A stretch of 64,000 bases of DNA, taken from the NCBI RefSeq assembly GCF_003790525.1, contig NZ_CP033635.1. One strand, written 5' to 3'. Positions 26,745 through 37,887 of the stretch are shown piece after piece. A model generated the notes under the pieces. It made no database searches. It was not told the DNA's origin and saw only the letters and a program-made list of their open reading frames with translations. Position 1 is the stretch's first letter; every line of letters begins with the position of its first letter. The stretch is from Escherichia coli. GTDB lineage: Bacteria > Pseudomonadota > Gammaproteobacteria > Enterobacterales > Enterobacteriaceae. Position numbers and translations under genes: made by a program.

Positions 26745-27638
26745 ATGGAACAGCTGCGTGCCGAATTAAGCCATTTACTGGGCGAAAAACTCAGTCGTAT
26801 TGAGTGCGTCAATGAAAAAGCGGATACGGCGTTGTGGGCTTTGTATGACAGCCAGGGAAACCCAATGCCGTTAATGGCAAGAAGCTTTAGTACGCCCGGA
26901 AAAGCCCGACAACTGGCATGGAAAACCACCATGCTGGCAAGAAGTGGGACTGTCCGTATGCCGACTATTTATGGTGTGATGACGCATGAAGAACACCCCG
27001 GCCCCGATGTCCTGCTACTGGAGCGGATGCGTGGTGTTTCGGTGGAGGCACCAGCCCGAACACCAGAACGCTGGGAACAACTCAAAGATCAAATCGTTGA
27101 AGCCTTACTGGCCTGGCACCGTCAGGACAGTCGCGGTTGCGTCGGCGCGGTCGACAATACTCAGGAAAATTTCTGGCCCTCATGGTACCGGCAACATGTT
27201 GAAGTGCTATGGACCACGCTCAATCAGTTCAATAACACCGGTCTGACGATGCAGGATAAGCGGATCCTGTTTCGCACTCGCGAATGTCTCCCGGCATTAT
27301 TTGAAGGCTTTAACGACAATTGTGTACTGATTCACGGTAACTTCTGTTTACGCAGCATGCTGAAAGATTCGCGCAGCGATCAGTTACTGGCGATGGTCGG
27401 ACCGGGACTAATGCTTTGGGCACCGCGAGAATACGAACTGTTCCGACTAATGGATAATTCTCTGGCGGAAGATTTGCTCTGGAGTTATCTGCAACGCGCG
27501 CCAGTGGCGGAGTCGTTCATCTGGCGGCGTTGGTTGTATGTGTTATGGGATGAAGTTGCGCAACTGGTCAACACCGGACGATTTAGTCGGCGTAACTTCG
27601 ATCTGGCATCAAAATCACTCTTGCCGTGGCTCGCCTGA
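26745..27638 (+). CDS. ycbJ: Putative phosphotransferase / kinase-like protein YcbJ
   Basis: 297-aa ORF; 3-prime end overlaps elyC on the opposite strand by 24 bp. Confidence 0.88.
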   Translation: MEQLRAELSHLLGEKLSRIECVNEKADTALWALYDSQGNPMPLMARSFSTPGKARQLAWKTTMLARSGTVRMPTIYGVMTHEEHPGPDVLLLERMRGVSVEAPARTPERWEQLKDQIVEALLAWHRQDSRGCVGAVDNTQENFWPSWYRQHVEVLWTTLNQFNNTGLTMQDKRILFRTRECLPALFEGFNDNCVLIHGNFCLRSMLKDSRSDQLLAMVGPGLMLWAPREYELFRLMDNSLAEDLLWSYLQRAPVAESFIWRRWLYVLWDEVAQLVNTGRFSRRNFDLASKSLLPWLA

Positions 27639-28394
27639 CGAACCTTTCAGCCATTGCCAGATCCGGCCAAGCGTTTCATAGCCAACGCGGTCGCTATGCA
27701 TCAACCAAACCGGAGAAGGGATTGCCCGTTCCCACGGATTAAGCGGCGAGTCGATGGCCAACTGATTCGCCGGGGCTGGTAGCGGATTTAACCCTTCCTG
27801 CTGAAAAAAGATCATCGCCCGCGGCAGATGTGATGCGGAGGTCACCAGCAGGAAAGGGGCGTCACCAATCGCCTGTTTCACTGCCGCAGCTTCTTCTTCG
27901 GTATCTTTTGGCAAATCCAGGGTGATAATTTGCTCGCGCGGTACGCCCAGCGATTGCGCAACTCTGGCACCTACTTCCGCTGTACTCACCGTATTGGTTT
28001 TTGCTACGCCTCCCGTGAAGATCAGTTTTGATCCCGGATTTTCGCGCCATAAGCGAATACCTTCATTCAGGCGTGGCAGACTGTTATTGATTAAATTCGA
28101 ACTCGGTGCCCACTGTGGGTTCCAGGTATAACCGCCTCCGAGCACCACGATATAGTCCACTTTTTGCGAATTATTCCATGTCGGATAGGTGCTTTCGATG
28201 GGACGCAGCAGGCGGTCGGCTACCGGTTGCAAACTCAATAACAAGAGCGCCAGCCACCCAATGCTAATAAAAATCTTCCCGGTTTTTTGAAAACGGCTAA
28301 ACCACAGCAGCGCCAGGCCAGCGCCAATAATCAACAACATCAGCGGAAGTGGCAGCAACATATTGCCAATCACTTTTTTCAGTGTAAAAAGCAT
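27615..28394 (-). CDS. elyC: Envelope biogenesis factor ElyC (DUF218)
   Basis: 259-aa ORF MLFTLKKVIGNMLLPLPLMLLIIGAGLALLWF... with N-terminal TM helices; formerly ycbC. Confidence 0.9.
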   Translation of the reverse strand: MLFTLKKVIGNMLLPLPLMLLIIGAGLALLWFSRFQKTGKIFISIGWLALLLLSLQPVADRLLRPIESTYPTWNNSQKVDYIVVLGGGYTWNPQWAPSSNLINNSLPRLNEGIRLWRENPGSKLIFTGGVAKTNTVSTAEVGARVAQSLGVPREQIITLDLPKDTEEEAAAVKQAIGDAPFLLVTSASHLPRAMIFFQQEGLNPLPAPANQLAIDSPLNPWERAIPSPVWLMHSDRVGYETLGRIWQWLKGSSGEPRQE

Positions 28395-28529
28395 CCTTTC
28401 TGGTTCCTTTTTTAACCATATAGCAAGGGATCGCCAGCGATATTACACCAGACGGGTTCATTCTCGCCGTGGCTGTGACAAAATAGCGTCTTTATCAGAA
28501 AACGTCTTAGCCAACCGGTGGAGAAAGCA

Positions 28530-29315
28530 ATGCAGGATCGCAATTTTGATGATATTGCGGAAAAGTTTTCCCGTAACATTTACGGCACCACCAAAGGGCA
28601 GCTTCGACAGGCTATTCTGTGGCAGGATCTCGATCGCGTGCTGGCGGAAATGGGCCCGCAAAAACTGCGTGTGCTGGATGCTGGCGGTGGAGAAGGGCAG
28701 ACCGCAATCAAAATGGCTGAGCGCGGGCATCAGGTCATTTTATGCGATCTTTCTGCGCAGATGATCGACCGCGCAAAACAGGCGGCAGAAGCAAAAGGTG
28801 TGAGCGACAACATGCAATTTATACATTGCGCCGCTCAGGATGTTGCTTCGCATTTGGAAACGCCCGTTGATCTGATATTGTTCCATGCGGTGCTCGAGTG
28901 GGTGGCCGATCCCCGCAGCGTATTACAGACCCTGTGGTCAGTGTTGCGTCCAGGCGGCGTGTTGTCGTTAATGTTCTACAATGCGCACGGCTTGCTGATG
29001 CATAACATGGTCGCCGGGAATTTTGATTACGTGCAGGCGGGAATGCCGAAAAAGAAAAAACGGACGCTTTCGCCAGATTATCCACGCGACCCGGCGCAGG
29101 TTTATCTGTGGCTGGAAGAAGCTGGTTGGCAAATTATGGGTAAGACAGGCGTTCGTGTGTTTCATGATTATCTGCGCGAGAAGCACCAGCAGCGCGACTG
29201 CTATGAAGCATTACTTGAATTAGAAACGCGTTATTGCCGTCAGGAACCGTATATTACCCTGGGGCGTTATATTCATGTCACCGCGCGCAAACCGCAGAGC
29301 AAGGATAAAGTATGA
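28530..29315 (+). CDS. cmoM: SAM-dependent tRNA methyltransferase CmoM (SmtA)
   Basis: Track ORF 28518..29315; start trimmed to [19 protein letters not shown] (261 aa); SAM-binding motif VLDAGGGEG; stop overlaps the mukF start. Confidence 0.9.
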
Positions 29316-30634
29316 GTGAATTTTCCCAGACAGTCCCCGAACTGGTTGCCTGGGCCAGAAAAAATGACTTCTCCATCTCGCTGCCGGTAGACCGACTCTC
29401 TTTTCTGCTGGCGGTTGCCACGCTGAACGGCGAGCGTCTGGATGGTGAGATGAGTGAAGGCGAGCTGGTGGATGCATTCCGCCATGTGAGTGATGCGTTT
29501 GAGCAAACCAGCGAAACCATCGGCGTGCGTGCCAACAACGCGATCAACGACATGGTGCGTCAACGTCTGCTGAACCGCTTTACCAGCGAGCAGGCGGAAG
29601 GGAACGCAATTTACCGTCTGACGCCGCTCGGCATCGGCATTACTGACTATTACATCCGTCAGCGCGAGTTTTCTACGCTGCGCCTTTCTATGCAGTTGTC
29701 GATTGTGGCGGGTGAGCTCAAACGCGCGGCAGATGCCGCCGAAGAGGGCGGTGATGAATTTCACTGGCACCGTAATGTTTATGCGCCACTGAAATATTCG
29801 GTAGCAGAAATTTTCGACAGTATCGACCTGACGCAACGTCTGATGGACGAACAGCAGCAGCAGGTGAAGGACGATATCGCCCAGTTGCTGAACAAAGACT
29901 GGCGGGCGGCGATCTCCAGCTGTGAATTGTTGCTTTCGGAAACTTCCGGAACGCTGCGTGAATTGCAGGATACGCTGGAAGCGGCAGGCGACAAATTGCA
30001 GGCTAATCTGTTGCGCATTCAGGATGCGACGATGACCCATGACGATCTGCATTTTGTCGATCGTCTGGTGTTCGATCTGCAGAGCAAACTTGACCGTATT
30101 ATCAGTTGGGGCCAGCAATCCATCGACTTGTGGATTGGCTACGACCGCCACGTACACAAATTTATCCGTACCGCAATCGATATGGATAAAAACCGCGTCT
30201 TTGCTCAGCGGTTACGTCAGTCGGTACAAACCTATTTTGATGAGCCGTGGGCGCTAACTTATGCCAATGCCGATCGTCTGCTGGATATGCGTGACGAAGA
30301 GATGGCACTGCGCGATGAAGAAGTGACTGGGGAACTTCCTGAGGATCTGGAGTACGAAGAGTTTAACGAGATCCGCGAACAGCTGGCGGCGATCATTGAA
30401 GAACAACTTGCCGTGTACAAAACCAGACAAGTGCCGCTGGATCTTGGTCTGGTGGTACGCGAATATCTGTCACAGTATCCGCGTGCACGTCACTTTGACG
30501 TTGCGCGCATTGTTATTGATCAGGCGGTACGTCTTGGCGTAGCGCAAGCAGATTTCACCGGACTGCCAGCGAAATGGCAGCCGATTAATGATTACGGAGC
30601 CAAGGTACAGGCGCATGTCATCGACAAATATTGA
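29312..30634 (+). CDS. mukF: Condensin kleisin subunit MukF
   Basis: 440-aa [34 protein letters not shown]... recognised as MukF. Confidence 0.97.
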
Positions 30635-31319
30635 ACAAGTGATGCCGGTTAAGCTGGCGCAGGCGCTGGCGAATCCGTTATTTCCGGCGCTGGATAGCGC
30701 CTTACGTTCAGGCCGCCATATTGGCCTCGACGAACTGGATAATCATGCATTCCTGATGGATTTTCAGGAATATCTGGAAGAGTTTTACGCGCGTTATAAC
30801 GTTGAGCTTATTCGCGCACCGGAAGGGTTCTTCTATTTACGCCCACGTTCCACCACTCTTATCCCGCGTTCCGTCTTGTCGGAACTGGATATGATGGTCG
30901 GGAAAATCCTCTGTTATCTCTATCTCAGCCCGGAACGGCTGGCGAACGAGGGGATTTTCACCCAGCAGGAACTGTACGACGAACTGCTCACCCTGGCCGA
31001 TGAAGCGAAACTGCTGAAACTGGTGAACAACCGTTCAACCGGTTCAGACGTTGACCGCCAGAAGTTGCAGGAGAAAGTACGTTCTTCGCTCAACCGTCTG
31101 CGTCGTTTGGGTATGGTGTGGTTTATGGGCCACGACAGCAGCAAGTTCCGCATTACCGAATCGGTGTTCCGCTTCGGAGCCGATGTGCGTGCTGGCGACG
31201 ATCCCCGTGAAGCACAGCGTCGCCTGATTCGTGATGGCGAAGCAATGCCGATTGAAAATCATCTGCAACTCAACGATGAAACCGAAGAGAATCAGCCAGA
31301 TAGCGGAGAGGAAGAATAA
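30615..31319 (+). CDS. mukE: Condensin subunit MukE
   Basis: Track ORF 30588..31319; start placed at [18 protein letters not shown] (234 aa), 20 nt inside the mukF 3-prime end; alternative upstream ATG at 30588 cannot be excluded. Confidence 0.88.
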
Positions 31320-34300
31320 TGATTGAACGCGGTAAATTTCGCTCACTGACGCTGATTAACTGGAACGGCTTTTTTGCCCGAACTTTTGACCTTGACGAGC
31401 TGGTCACGACGCTTTCTGGCGGTAACGGGGCGGGTAAATCCACCACCATGGCGGCGTTCGTTACGGCGCTGATCCCCGACCTGACCCTGCTGCATTTCCG
31501 TAACACCACGGAAGCCGGGGCCACCAGCGGTTCGCGCGATAAAGGTCTGCACGGTAAGCTGAAAGCGGGTGTCTGTTATTCGATGCTCGACACCATTAAC
31601 TCGCGCCACCAGCGCGTGGTGGTCGGTGTGCGTCTGCAACAGGTTGCCGGACGCGATCGTAAAGTGGATATCAAACCGTTTGCCATTCAGGGTTTACCGA
31701 TGTCGGTGCAGCCGACACAACTGGTGACCGAAACCCTGAGCGAACGTCAGGCGCGCGTGCTGCCGCTTAACGAGCTGAAAGACAAGCTCGAGGCGATGGA
31801 AGGCGTGCAGTTTAAACAGTTCAACTCCATTACCGATTACCACTCGCTGATGTTCGATCTGGGCATCATCGCGCGTCGTCTGCGCTCAGCGTCTGACCGT
31901 AGTAAATTCTATCGTCTGATCGAAGCTTCGCTGTACGGCGGGATCTCCAGCGCCATTACGCGCTCTCTGCGCGACTACCTGTTGCCGGAAAACAGCGGCG
32001 TGCGGAAAGCGTTCCAGGACATGGAAGCGGCGCTGCGCGAAAACCGCATGACGCTGGAAGCGATTCGTGTCACCCAGTCGGACCGCGACCTGTTTAAGCA
32101 TCTGATTAGCGAAGCCACCAACTACGTGGCGGCGGACTACATGCGTCACGCCAACGAGCGCCGTGTCCATCTCGACAAAGCCCTGGAGTTTCGTCGCGAG
32201 CTACACACTTCGCGTCAGCAACTGGCGGCTGAGCAGTACAAACACGTCGATATGGCGCGTGAGCTGGCAGAGCACAACGGTGCCGAAGGCGATCTGGAAG
32301 CAGATTATCAGGCGGCCAGCGATCACCTGAACCTGGTGCAAACCGCACTGCGTCAGCAGGAGAAGATCGAACGCTACGAAGCGGATCTCGATGAGCTGCA
32401 GATCCGTCTGGAAGAGCAAAACGAAGTGGTGGCAGAAGCCATCGAACGCCAGGAAGAGAACGAGGCTCGTGCGGAAGCTGCCGAACTGGAAGTGGACGAG
32501 CTGAAAAGCCAGCTTGCTGACTACCAGCAGGCGCTGGACGTCCAGCAAACGCGCGCGATCCAGTATAACCAGGCGATTGCTGCGCTTAATCGTGCCAAAG
32601 AACTGTGCCATCTGCCGGACTTAACCGCCGACAGCGCCGCCGAATGGCTGGAAACCTTCCAGGCGAAAGAGCTGGAAGCGACCGAAAAAATGCTCTCTCT
32701 TGAGCAGAAAATGAGCATGGCGCAAACCGCGCACAGCCAGTTTGAGCAGGCTTATCAGCTGGTGGTGGCAATCAACGGCCCGCTGGCGCGTAACGAGGCG
32801 TGGGATGTCGCTCGCGAACTATTGCGCGAAGGGGTCGATCAGCGTCACCTGGCAGAGCAGGTTCAGCCGTTGCGGATGCGCTTAAGCGAACTGGAACAGC
32901 GTCTGCGTGAGCAGCAAGAAGCTGAGCGTCTGCTGGCAGATTTCTGCAAACGTCAGGGCAAGAATTTTGACATTGACGAGCTGGAAGCTCTGCATCAGGA
33001 GCTGGAAGCACGCATTGCCTCTCTTTCCGATAGCGTGTCTAACGCCCGTGAAGAGCGGATGACACTGCGCCAGGAGCAGGAACAGCTGCAGTCTCGCATT
33101 CAGAGTTTGATGCGGCGTGCGCCGGTTTGGCTGGCTGCGCAAAACAGTCTCAACCAGTTGAGCGAACAGTGCGGCGAAGAGTTCTCCTCCAGCCAGGATG
33201 TCACCGAATATCTGCAACAGTTGCTGGAGCGTGAGCGCGAAGCCATTGTTGAACGCGATGAAGTAGGCGCGCGCAAAAACGCCGTCGATGAAGAGATCGA
33301 ACGTTTAAGCCAGCCAGGTGGTTCTGAAGACCAGCGTCTGAATGCGCTGGCGGAGCGTTTTGGCGGCGTGCTGCTGTCAGAAATTTATGACGACGTTAGC
33401 CTGGAAGATGCGCCGTACTTCTCAGCGCTGTATGGCCCGTCACGCCACGCCATCGTGGTGCCAGATCTGTCACAGGTAACCGAACACCTGGAAGGCTTGA
33501 CCGATTGCCCGGAAGATCTCTATCTGATCGAAGGGGATCCGCAGTCATTCGATGACAGCGTGTTCAGCGTTGATGAGCTGGAAAAAGCGGTGGTGGTGAA
33601 AATCGCCGATCGTCAGTGGCGTTATTCACGTTTCCCGGAAGTGCCGCTGTTTGGTCGTGCTGCGCGTGAAAGCCGTATTGAAAGCCTCCATGCCGAGCGT
33701 GAAGTGCTTTCCGAACGCTTCGCCACGCTCTCCTTTGATGTACAGAAAACCCAGCGTCTGCATCAGGCGTTCAGCCGCTTTATCGGCAGCCACCTGGCGG
33801 TGGCGTTTGAGTCTGATCCGGAAGCCGAAATCCGTCAACTGAACAGCCGTCGCGTCGAACTGGAGCGGGCGTTGAGTAATCATGAAAATGATAACCAGCA
33901 GCAGCGTATTCAGTTTGAGCAGGCGAAAGAGGGTGTTACGGCGCTGAACCGCATTCTGCCGCGTCTCAACTTGTTGGCTGATGACAGCCTGGCGGATCGC
34001 GTCGATGAAATCCGCGAACGTCTGGATGAAGCCCAGGAAGCCGCGCGTTTTGTTCAGCAGTTCGGTAATCAACTGGCGAAACTGGAACCGATCGTTTCGG
34101 TATTGCAGAGTGACCCGGAACAGTTCGAACAATTAAAAGAAGATTACGCGTACTCTCAGCAGATGCAGCGCGATGCCCGTCAGCAGGCGTTTGCCCTGAC
34201 GGAAGTGGTGCAGCGTCGTGCGCACTTTAGCTACTCTGACTCGGCAGAAATGCTTAGCGGTAACAGCGATCTCAACGAAAAACTGCGTGAACGTCTGGAA

Positions 34301-35779
34301 CAGGCGGAAGCGGAGCGTACCCGCGCGCGTGAAGCGTTGCGCGGACACGCAGCGCAGTTGAGTCAGTACAACCAGGTGCTGGCTTCGCTGAAAAGTTCTT
34401 ACGACACCAAAAAAGAGCTACTCAACGATCTGCAACGTGAATTGCAGGATATCGGCGTGCGTGCTGATAGCGGGGCAGAAGAGCGGGCGCGTATTCGCCG
34501 TGACGAGTTGCACGCGCAACTGAGCAATAACCGTTCACGCCGCAATCAACTGGAAAAAGCGCTTACCTTCTGCGAAGCAGAGATGGACAACCTGACCCGC
34601 AAACTGCGCAAGCTGGAGCGGGATTACTTTGAGATGCGCGAGCAGGTAGTGACCGCGAAAGCGGGCTGGTGTGCAGTCATGCGCATGGTGAAAGATAACG
34701 GTGTTGAGCGCCGCTTACACCGTCGTGAGCTGGCTTATCTCTCCGCTGATGATTTGCGTTCCATGTCGGATAAGGCGTTAGGTGCGCTGCGTCTGGCGGT
34801 GGCGGATAACGAACATCTGCGCGACGTGCTGCGGATGTCGGAAGATCCGAAACGTCCGGAGCGTAAAATTCAGTTCTTCGTGGCGGTTTATCAGCATCTG
34901 CGCGAGCGTATTCGTCAGGATATTATTCGTACCGATGATCCGGTTGAAGCTATCGAGCAGATGGAGATCGAACTTAGTCGTCTGACTGAAGAGTTAACGT
35001 CCCGCGAACAGAAACTGGCGATCAGTTCCCGCAGCGTGGCGAACATCATCCGTAAAACCATTCAGCGCGAGCAGAACCGTATCCGTATGCTCAACCAGGG
35101 CTTGCAGAACGTATCGTTCGGTCAGGTGAACAGCGTGCGCCTCAACGTGAACGTGCGTGAAACGCATGCCATGCTGCTGGATGTGCTCTCTGAACAGCAC
35201 GAGCAACATCAGGATCTGTTTAACAGCAACCGTCTGACCTTCTCGGAAGCGCTGGCGAAACTGTATCAACGTCTTAACCCGCAGATTGATATGGGGCAGC
35301 GCACGCCGCAGACCATCGGTGAAGAACTGCTGGATTACCGCAACTATCTGGAAATGGAAGTTGAGGTTAACCGTGGTTCCGATGGCTGGCTGCGCGCAGA
35401 ATCTGGCGCTCTGTCGACCGGTGAGGCGATTGGTACCGGTATGTCGATTCTGGTGATGGTGGTACAAAGCTGGGAAGATGAATCTCGCCGCCTGCGCGGT
35501 AAAGATATCTCTCCTTGCCGCCTGCTGTTCCTCGATGAAGCAGCGCGACTGGATGCTCGTTCCATCGCCACGCTGTTTGAATTGTGTGAGCGTTTGCAAA
35601 TGCAGCTCATCATCGCAGCGCCGGAAAATATCAGCCCGGAAAAAGGCACCACCTATAAACTGGTGCGTAAAGTCTTCCAGAATACCGAACACGTTCACGT
35701 AGTCGGTCTGCGTGGTTTTGCACCGCAACTCCCTGAAACGCTTCCAGGAAGTGACGAAGCGCCTTCCCAGGCGAGCTAA
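31319..35779 (+). CDS. mukB: Condensin SMC-like ATPase MukB
   Basis: 1486-aa ORF; Walker [10 protein letters not shown]; long coiled-coil middle; ATG overlaps the mukE stop (TAATG). Confidence 0.97.
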
Positions 35780-35784
35780 GATTG

Positions 35785-35809
35785 AGGCGGCAGCGATGCC
35801 GCCTTTTCT
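35785..35809 (+). terminator. mukB intrinsic terminator
   Basis: AGGCGGCA-GCGA-TGCCGCCT followed by TTTCTATTT, 6 bp after the mukB stop. Confidence 0.7.
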
Positions 35810-36039
35810 ATTTCTGAAAACTCCGTTTCTGCACTAAAAAAATGCCACATTCTGGCGCGCTTTTCTTTAAACTTCTTTACATTAGGTTATGTAAAAACGT
35901 ATCGGCGTTTATATACTGAAGATAAGCCTGATGAGTAACAGGCTTGCTCGTCATACTTTCGTGAGTATTGGCGTTGTACAGGCAAGTCGTAAAATAACAG
36001 CCTGGCTATTCAGAGTATGATAAAAACAGGGGGCAAGGG

Positions 36040-37887
36040 ATGTTGCTTAATATGATGTGTGGTCGTCGGCTGTCGGCAATCAGTTTGTGCGTGGCCGTAA
36101 CATTCGCTCCACTGTTCAATGCGCAGGCCGATGAGCCTGAAGTAATCCCTGGCGACAGCCCGGTGGCTGTCAGTGAACAGGGCGAGGCACTGCCGCAGGC
36201 GCAAGCCACGGCAATTATGGCGGGGATCCAGCCATTGCCTGAAGGTGCGGCAGAAAAAGCCCGCACGCAAATCGAATCTCAATTACCCGCAGGTTATAAG
36301 CCGGTTTATCTTAACCAGCTTCAACTGTTGTATGCCGCACGCGATATGCAACCCATGTGGGAAAACCGTGATGCTGTTAAAGCCTTCCAGCAACAGCTGG
36401 CAGAGGTGGCGATTGCCGGTTTCCAGCCGCAGTTTAATAAATGGGTAGAGTTACTGACCGATCCTGGTGTTAACGGGATGGCACGCGACGTCGTGCTCTC
36501 TGATGCGATGATGGGCTATCTCCATTTCATTGCAAATATTCCGGTCAAAGGCACTCGCTGGCTATATAGCAGTAAACCTTATGCGCTTTCAACGCCGCCG
36601 CTTTCGGTGATTAACCAATGGCAGCTGGCGCTGGATAAAGGTCAATTGCCGACGTTTGTTGCAGGTCTGGCACCGCAGCATCCGCAATATGCAGCGATGC
36701 ATGAATCGTTACTGGCCTTACTCAGTGACACCAAACCGTGGCCCCAACTGACCGGCAAAGCAACGTTGCGCCCAGGGCAGTGGAGTAACGACGTACCGGC
36801 GTTGCGCGAAATATTGCAACGCACAGGCATGCTGGACGGGGGGCCGAAAATTACTCTACCTGGCGATGACACGCCAACTGACGCGGTAGTCAGCCCATCC
36901 GCTGTTACTGTTGAAACAGCAGAAACTAAGCCGATGGACAAGCAAACGACGTCTCGTAGTAAACCTGCGCCTGCCGTTCGTGCCGCCTACGATAATGAAC
37001 TGGTGGAAGCCGTTAAACGTTTTCAGGCATGGCAAGGATTGGGAGCAGATGGCGCTATTGGCCCGGCAACGCGTGACTGGTTAAACGTAACGCCCGCCCA
37101 GCGTGCTGGCGTGTTGGCACTCAACATCCAGCGATTGCGCTTGCTGCCAACAGAGCTTTCTACCGGGATCATGGTTAACATTCCGGCCTATTCGCTGGTC
37201 TACTATCAGAACGGCAATCAGGTGCTGGATTCGCGAGTCATTGTCGGTCGCCCCGATCGCAAAACGCCGATGATGAGCAGTGCACTTAACAACGTAGTGG
37301 TAAACCCGCCGTGGAACGTACCACCAACTCTGGCACGCAAAGATATTCTGCCGAAAGTGCGCAACGATCCGGGATATCTCGAAAGCCATGGCTATACGGT
37401 GATGCGCGGCTGGAACAGCAGAGAAGCGATTGACCCATGGCAGGTTGACTGGTCTACAATCACGGCCTCGAATTTACCGTTCCGCTTCCAGCAGGCTCCA
37501 GGCCCACGGAACTCGCTGGGGCGCTATAAATTCAATATGCCGAGTTCAGAGGCCATTTATTTGCATGACACGCCGAACCACAATCTGTTCAAACGTGATA
37601 CACGCGCATTGAGCTCAGGCTGTGTGCGAGTGAATAAAGCTTCCGATCTGGCGAATATGCTGTTGCAGGATGCAGGATGGAATGACAAACGTATTTCTGA
37701 TGCGCTGAAGCAGGGCGATACGCGTTACGTCAATATTCGGCAGTCGATTCCGGTGAATCTCTACTACCTGACGGCCTTTGTTGGTGCAGATGGTCGTACC
37801 CAGTATCGTACAGATATTTACAATTATGATCTGCCTGCGCGATCCAGCTCGCAAATCGTATCGAAAGCGGAACAATTAATCAGGTAA
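36040..37887 (+). CDS. ldtD: L,D-transpeptidase LdtD (YcbB)
   Basis: 615-aa ORF with signal peptide; YkuD catalytic motif [10 protein letters not shown]...SSGCVRV. Confidence 0.93.

Follow-up and report, generated by a model that had tools for sequence, protein, structure and literature searches.

The genes cmoM, mukF, mukE and mukB lie one behind the other in a 64,000-nucleotide (nt) stretch of Escherichia coli DNA (assembly GCF_003790525.1, contig NZ_CP033635.1; hereafter the window) and are joined by a chain of overlapping start and stop codons. This arrangement raises two questions, namely whether a tRNA-modification methyltransferase and three condensin subunits are translated in a coupled fashion, and which of several in-frame codons starts mukE. 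A first-pass annotation, made from the letters of the window, had suggested coupling along the whole chain. Our comparison across related genomes indicates that this is very probably the known operon with ordinary translational coupling, in which MukE is made mainly from ATG 30615. To the published picture the comparison adds the variation of each junction across genera, a frozen block that we take to bind the ribosome for mukE, and an outcome for the mukE start in which 30588 is firmly rejected, 30615 is well supported and 30642 is the true residual alternative.

The start of mukE

Only four codons are candidate starts in the mukE frame of E. coli, ATG 30588, ATG 30615, GTG 30639 and ATG 30642; the last two were absent from the first-pass annotation, and 30642 lies 7 nt past the mukF stop. 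We compared them in 80 species-level Enterobacteriaceae loci together with the window, 81 sequences in total, from a genome scan that yielded Enterobacteriaceae only and in which MukE identity was at least 93% throughout; wider diversity was covered by nine loci only, some of them metagenomic, obtained from a representative search and contig look-ups. ATG 30615 is invariant in all 81 loci and is also kept in Erwinia, Rahnella, Photorhabdus and the distant locus L086 (MukE 61% identical). It is preceded by GGAG at 30596-30599 and AAGG at 30602-30605, with a best anti-Shine-Dalgarno duplex of -5.8 kcal/mol, and these motifs are written by a rare glycine codon (GGA) and a minor lysine codon (AAG) of mukF, each of them invariant in 81/81. 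RefSeq, on identical sequence, begins mukE at window position 30615, and the resulting form of 234 amino acids (aa) is the one found in PDB entries 3EUH, 9GMB and 9GMD. The N-terminal stretch that precedes the conserved 'KL' in the first helix is 12 residues long in the 234-aa form, 3 in the 225-aa form and 21 in the 243-aa form, compared with 11-15 in distant MukE proteins whose intergenic starts are unambiguous. The evidence from sequence thus points to 30615 as the best-supported and probably main start of mukE, and we infer that it is dominant in vivo. The first-pass annotation had preferred the same codon, and its preference is now supported by the invariance of the codon, the frozen ribosome-binding region described below and the RefSeq label.

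A mukE that began at 30588 would be 243 aa long and would overlap mukF by 47 nt. This codon is the first ATG in the open frame, and one gene caller chose it for Photorhabdus asymbiotica. Against it, a T-to-C change at 30589 turns the ATG into ACG in 17 of the 81 genomes (Enterobacter, Leclercia and Lelliottia), which have no other upstream start; its duplex of -1.8 kcal/mol is weaker than the median of all ATGs in the window (-2.8 kcal/mol); it is used by neither RefSeq nor any PDB entry or construct; and the ATG itself is a by-product of the mukF codons for Asn-Asp (AAT GAT). We reject 30588 because it reads ACG in those 17 genomes and is without Shine-Dalgarno pairing, and we put the chance that mukE starts there close to nil. 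The earlier statement that sequence does not resolve 30615 from 30588 therefore holds for a single genome but not for comparative sequence, in which 30588 is lost in part of the loci and 30615 never varies.

The ambiguity that remains lies between 30615 and 30642, the latter being conceivable as a secondary start, and several observations weigh against giving 30615 the main role. GGAG, the best pairing available to that codon, ends 15 nt upstream of it, which is longer than ideal, and the better-spaced AAGG pairs less strongly than GGAG. ATG 30642 is itself invariant in 81/81, as conserved as 30615 within the Enterobacteriaceae, and the 225-aa MukE that it would produce is present in solved structures (PDB 7V8P and 3RPU). 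Moreover, our literature search turned up neither initiation-site profiling nor N-terminal proteomics for mukE, and mukE, mukF and mukB are not mentioned in the TRAINSPOTTER N-terminomics supplements. The Pfam MukE model starts at 30642. On the other side, 30642 is essentially devoid of Shine-Dalgarno pairing (-0.2 kcal/mol), and L086 keeps the equivalents of ATG 30615 and AAGG while the codon equivalent to 30642 encodes proline.

A paper on the MazF regulon includes mukE and reports cleavage at an ACA located 7 nt from its start (PMC5001579). There are ACA triplets at 30607-30609 and 30635-30637, about 7 nt upstream of ATG 30615 and ATG 30642 respectively, so the listing does not discriminate between the two.

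A frozen block at the end of mukF

Per-column counts in the 81 loci and entropy windows across 77 loci delimit a nearly invariant block of 57 nt around the mukE start (Table 1). No other 30-nt window of the mukF-mukE span varies as little as 30592-30621, which lies within this block and has a mean entropy of 0.011 compared with a median of 0.383. In this window ten mukF third positions in a row show conservation of 95% or more, a level reached by only 16% of mukF third positions. Third positions vary freely on both flanks, in mukF upstream of 30590 and in mukE downstream of 30646. The block extends from approximately -25 to +31 about ATG 30615, and it is centred on that start and not on 30642. 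We read it as the ribosome-binding region of mukE, which would be contained in the last mukF codons and would freeze mukF synonymous sites across Enterobacterales. Dual coding from 30588 was considered as an explanation for the freezing of mukF synonymous sites between 30590 and 30614, and was rejected because the 17 genomes that lose that ATG, and have no other upstream start, retain an invariant block.

Variation at mukF third positions within the overlap is found at two sites. At position 30622, 50 of the 81 loci have T and 31 have C, a difference that is silent in MukF (Ile) and swaps residue 3 of MukE between serine and leucine, and the N-terminal tail of MukE therefore tolerates substitution at this residue; the second site, 30625, varies in 2/81.

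The choice between 30615 and 30642 is also touched by the recoded strain Syn61. A recoding study published in 2026 re-annotated Syn61 against MG1655, found genes with changed coordinates that still contain 'forbidden' codons, and named mukE among the essential genes that carry them (PMC13287592). A start at 30615 instead of 30642 adds nine codons, the first three of which are ATG TCA TCG. TCA and TCG are exactly the serine codons removed in Syn61, and we infer that the forbidden codons of mukE are these two, codons 2 and 3 counted from 30615. The tRNA-deleted derivative Syn61Δ3 is reportedly viable, and viability without the matching tRNAs could mean that the 30615 start is dispensable, which again would tell against its main role. 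If the identity of the two codons is right, this viability is a hint that initiation at 30642, or else leaky decoding, might supply enough MukE.

The downstream end of the block extends past the reach of a ribosome bound at 30615. A different account of the block would give MukE two starts, with the 234-aa form initiated through the Shine-Dalgarno sequence at 30615, the 225-aa form produced at 30642 through reinitiation by ribosomes that have terminated at the mukF TGA, and the block serving both and helping to set the MukE:MukF ratio. The invariance of both ATGs would agree with this, as would the continuation of the block through 30646 to include the mukE third positions 30635, 30641 and 30644, the position of 30642, without a Shine-Dalgarno sequence but immediately behind the mukF stop, the structures solved with 225-aa MukE, and the unreadable Syn61 codons if they indeed lie upstream of 30642. 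However, the Met at 30642 may be kept for reasons of the protein, L086 has lost it, distant homologues do not have it, and no direct data on a second start were found. An initiating ribosome covers approximately -20 to +15 about its start codon and may account for some of the downstream conservation, although not clearly for that reaching 30646. On balance we consider two MukE starts unlikely, and the fuller proposal, in which 30590-30646 would act as a dual-start module producing both isoforms and tuning the MukE:MukF ratio, a shade less likely again; if true, it would explain how recoded strains tolerate unreadable codons at positions 2 and 3 of mukE. Initiation mainly at 30615 is the reading that we retain in what follows.

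A second region of suppressed synonymous variation occupies the first codons of mukF (Table 1). Here 29325-29354 ranks second in conservation among the 30-nt stretches of mukF-mukE in the 77 loci, and an imperfect inverted repeat, CCCAG...CTGGG, lies within 29312-29359. Early-codon conservation of this kind was not seen in the first codons of mukB. Structured RNA was tried as a cause of the two frozen blocks. The cmoM/mukF junction with early mukF is predicted to fold no more stably than shuffled sequence (z = +0.43), the fold at the mukF/mukE junction is not significant by the same comparison (z = -1.51), and Rfam gave no match at E <= 1 within 28300-36100. We rejected the explanation because there was neither an Rfam match nor a significant fold at the junctions.

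Junction geometry and translational coupling

The sequence and the list of open reading frames bear out the geometry that had been reported at both ends of the muk chain. The cmoM stop (TGA, 29313-29315) and the mukF start (ATG, 29312-29314) share an ATGA at 29312-29315, a 4-nt overlap, and the mukE stop (TAA, 31317-31319) and the mukB start (ATG, 31319-31321) form a TAATG at 31317-31321, a 1-nt overlap. Between them, the mukF TGA at 30632-30634 leaves a mukE begun at 30615 overlapping mukF by 20 nt, again as first described and in agreement with RefSeq. The Shine-Dalgarno sequence of each downstream gene lies inside the upstream coding sequence (AAGGA at 29301, GGAG/AAGG at 30596-30605 and GGAGAGGAAG at 31305), with anti-Shine-Dalgarno duplexes of -5.2 kcal/mol for mukF, -5.8 for mukE from 30615 and -6.6 for mukB, all stronger than the window median. 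These embedded sites are conserved, synonymous sites included. With stops that overlap the following starts by 4, 20 and 1 nt, and with ribosome-binding sites embedded in the preceding coding sequence, the three junctions have the features by which coupled gene pairs are recognized.

The junctions are also conserved, each to a different degree. The 20-nt mukF/mukE overlap is present in 81/81 loci, in which the mukF stop and ATG 30615 are both invariant, and mukE/mukB reads TAATG in 79 and ATGA in 2. At cmoM/mukF the stop occurs at one of three distances from the mukF ATG, a 3-nt gap (+3), a 4-nt overlap (-4) or an 8-nt overlap (-8). A TAA 3 nt upstream of the ATG is found in 32 loci, the ATGA overlap in 11 (among them E. 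coli, E. albertii, Klebsiella pneumoniae and Raoultella), and the 8-nt overlap (ATGAGTGA) in about 34, a figure that includes nine loci in which our script chose an earlier in-frame start. The AAGGA-N6-ATGAGTGA core that holds the mukF start and its Shine-Dalgarno sequence varies little among the genera compared. All three junctions remain within +3 to -20 in the 81 genomes, and further afield Erwinia, Rahnella, Photorhabdus and L086 share the cmoM-mukF-mukE-mukB order together with the 20-nt mukF/mukE overlap. This conservation, across the 81 Enterobacteriaceae sequences and four distant loci, fits selection for coupled expression.

The different positions of the cmoM stop result from changes of reading frame in the C-terminal tail of CmoM (29250-29315), which ends ...KPQMQG*, ...SKDKV* or ...DARITYE* depending on the genus. 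There appears to be no constraint on the last ~10 residues of CmoM.

In the model that we favor, a single mRNA would run from a promoter upstream of cmoM to the hairpin that follows mukB. Each internal gene would start within a few bases of the preceding stop, using its own Shine-Dalgarno sequence in the preceding coding sequence, and ribosomes that translate the upstream gene, or that terminate on it, would hold the next start open or reinitiate there. MukE would be made mainly as the 234-aa form from ATG 30615, with its ribosome-binding region written into the last mukF codons, and the three condensin subunits would thereby be produced together from one mRNA. Coupled translation is, on this evidence, a reasonable inference.

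Some observations count against it. A literature search on mukE, mukF and 'translational coupling' found no experiment showing that translation of mukF, mukE or mukB depends on the upstream gene. At cmoM/mukF it is the closeness of the two genes that is conserved and not the particular overlap. In addition, three distant loci (MukE identity 54-69%) have gaps of 34, 85 and 7 nt between mukF and mukE, where mukE has its own intergenic Shine-Dalgarno sequence, and MukBEF function therefore does not require the overlap. Among the distant loci, L082 and L084 retain the 1-nt mukE/mukB overlap, and there is no cmoM upstream of mukF in L082 and L083.

These observations bear on a simpler explanation, that the overlaps reflect only compaction of the genome, mutation bias having produced the frequent -4 and -1 phase classes, and that the genes are functionally uncoupled, each being initiated independently through a Shine-Dalgarno sequence of its own. 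Overlaps are indeed frequent in the window, where RefSeq annotation places 10 of 40 same-strand adjacent gene pairs in overlap and five of these have a 4-nt ATGA (ssuA/D, ssuC/B, ycaR/kdsB, msbA/lpxK and cmoM/mukF), and the ssuEADCB genes form a comparable chain with junctions of -8, -4, +11 and -4. The overlap arrangement is thus real yet statistically unremarkable, in the normal style of an E. coli operon. Compaction would also accommodate the adequate Shine-Dalgarno sequence of every downstream gene, the drift of the cmoM stop and the gaps in the distant loci. It fits less well with the 81 sequences, in which synonymous sites elsewhere have diverged heavily and yet no junction opens by more than 3 nt, and such short stop-start distances typically give measurable coupling, as in the E. 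coli trp and gal operons. We therefore think it improbable that compaction is the whole explanation, and prefer coupled translation.

The classical coupled junctions of E. coli, trpE-trpD, trpB-trpA (with an overlapping UGAUG) and galT-galK, offer a close comparison. Like the cmoM-mukFEB junctions, they combine a stop that overlaps or abuts the next start with a Shine-Dalgarno sequence in the upstream coding sequence, and their products are subunits of one complex. Their coupling was demonstrated genetically, whereas that of cmoM-mukFEB is suggested by the junctions. The present case further differs in that CmoM is not part of the MukBEF complex, and in that the 20-nt mukF/mukE overlap exceeds the 1 or 4 nt that are usual.

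The operon and its relatives

The identity of the locus is clear. A stretch of 3101 nt is 100% identical to E. coli SMS-3-5 and several other E. coli genomes, the locus is present in 5425 of 5426 complete E. coli genomes, and RefSeq labels the identical sequence cmoM, mukF, mukE and mukB. The cmoM product matches Methyltransf_11/25/31 in Pfam (SAM-dependent methyltransferase), the mukF product KicB, MukF_M and MukF_C, the mukE product MukE, and the mukB product MukB_N, hinge and Walker B; the gene names first given from sequence are those that Pfam and RefSeq return. By Pfam and RefSeq the four genes are co-oriented in the order methyltransferase-MukF-MukE-MukB, and this is the textbook E. coli smtA(cmoM)-mukF-mukE-mukB operon, an arrangement already known. 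It has the same four genes, order and strand as the published operon, with no difference.

The smtA-mukF-mukE-mukB genes are treated as one operon in two papers (PMC4255302 and PMC3871593), and the account goes back to Yamanaka et al. 1996 as these papers cite it. The promoter upstream of smtA has been used to place the operon under inducible control (PMC4255302, PMC3871593, PMC7163298), and co-transcription from a promoter 5' of smtA/cmoM rests on this literature. Our own consensus scan, which provides weak evidence, gave no promoter-like match within 28300-35960. A terminator-like hairpin directly follows mukB and is likely to be the end of the operon.

Table 1. Coordinates of the genes, junctions and other elements of the cmoM-mukFEB locus in the window
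Feature	Position	Strand	Details
cmoM (smtA) coding sequence	28530..29315	+	261 aa; tRNA cmo5U34 methyltransferase; first gene of the operon; open reading frame list, Pfam, RefSeq
cmoM/mukF junction	29301..29315	+	Shine-Dalgarno AAGGA 29301-29305, mukF ATG, cmoM TGA; duplex -5.2 kcal/mol
mukF coding sequence	29312..30634	+	440 aa; kleisin subunit; Pfam, RefSeq
First ~16 mukF codons, suppressed synonymous variation	29312..29359	+	Third positions almost invariant to ~29358
Upstream in-frame ATG, alternative mukE start	30588..30590	+	243 aa; rejected
Nearly invariant 57-nt block, putative mukE ribosome-binding region in the mukF 3' end	30590..30646	+	GGAG, AAGG, ATG 30615, mukF TGA, ATG 30642
mukE coding sequence	30615..31319	+	234 aa; best-supported start; 20-nt overlap with mukF
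Internal in-frame ATG	30642..30644	+	225-aa form; 7 nt past the mukF stop; possible minor or reinitiation start
mukE/mukB junction	31305..31321	+	Shine-Dalgarno GGAGAGGAAG 31305-31314, mukE TAA, mukB ATG; duplex -6.6 kcal/mol
mukB coding sequence	31319..35779	+	1486 aa; SMC-like ATPase; Pfam, RefSeq
Terminator-like GC-rich hairpin and T-run, directly 3' of mukB	35784..35805	+	Consensus scan only

The start of mukE has been annotated differently over time, and 234-aa and 225-aa forms both stand in the PDB. A firm call of the start, together with the last 15 codons of mukF apparently doubling as the mukE ribosome-binding region, is relevant to the recoding, tagging or deletion of these genes. 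Beyond correct annotation the findings are of little importance, as the operon and its compact junctions have long been known and overlaps are routine in bacterial operons.

Outside the Enterobacteriaceae, a smtA-mukFEB operon has been predicted in Vibrio fischeri (PMC3948606), and the mukFEB loci of other gammaproteobacteria (L082, L084, L085 and V. fischeri) have the mukF-mukE-mukB order in common with E. coli. The distant loci differ from E. coli in the mukF-mukE gap of 7-85 nt and in the intergenic position of the mukE Shine-Dalgarno sequence. Four distant MukE homologues from beyond the window (P0127, P0130, P0133 and P0136; 46-58% identity) are 450-574 aa long and have very long, extremely acidic, Asp/Glu-rich C-terminal tails of low complexity, in contrast to the short acidic tail of E. 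coli MukE (...NQPDSGEEE).

Elsewhere in the window, two convergent gene pairs overlap at their 3' ends in RefSeq annotation, elyC/ycbJ by 24 nt (elyC 27615-28394 on the minus strand, ycbJ 26745-27638 on the plus strand) and ycbX/zapC by 4 nt.

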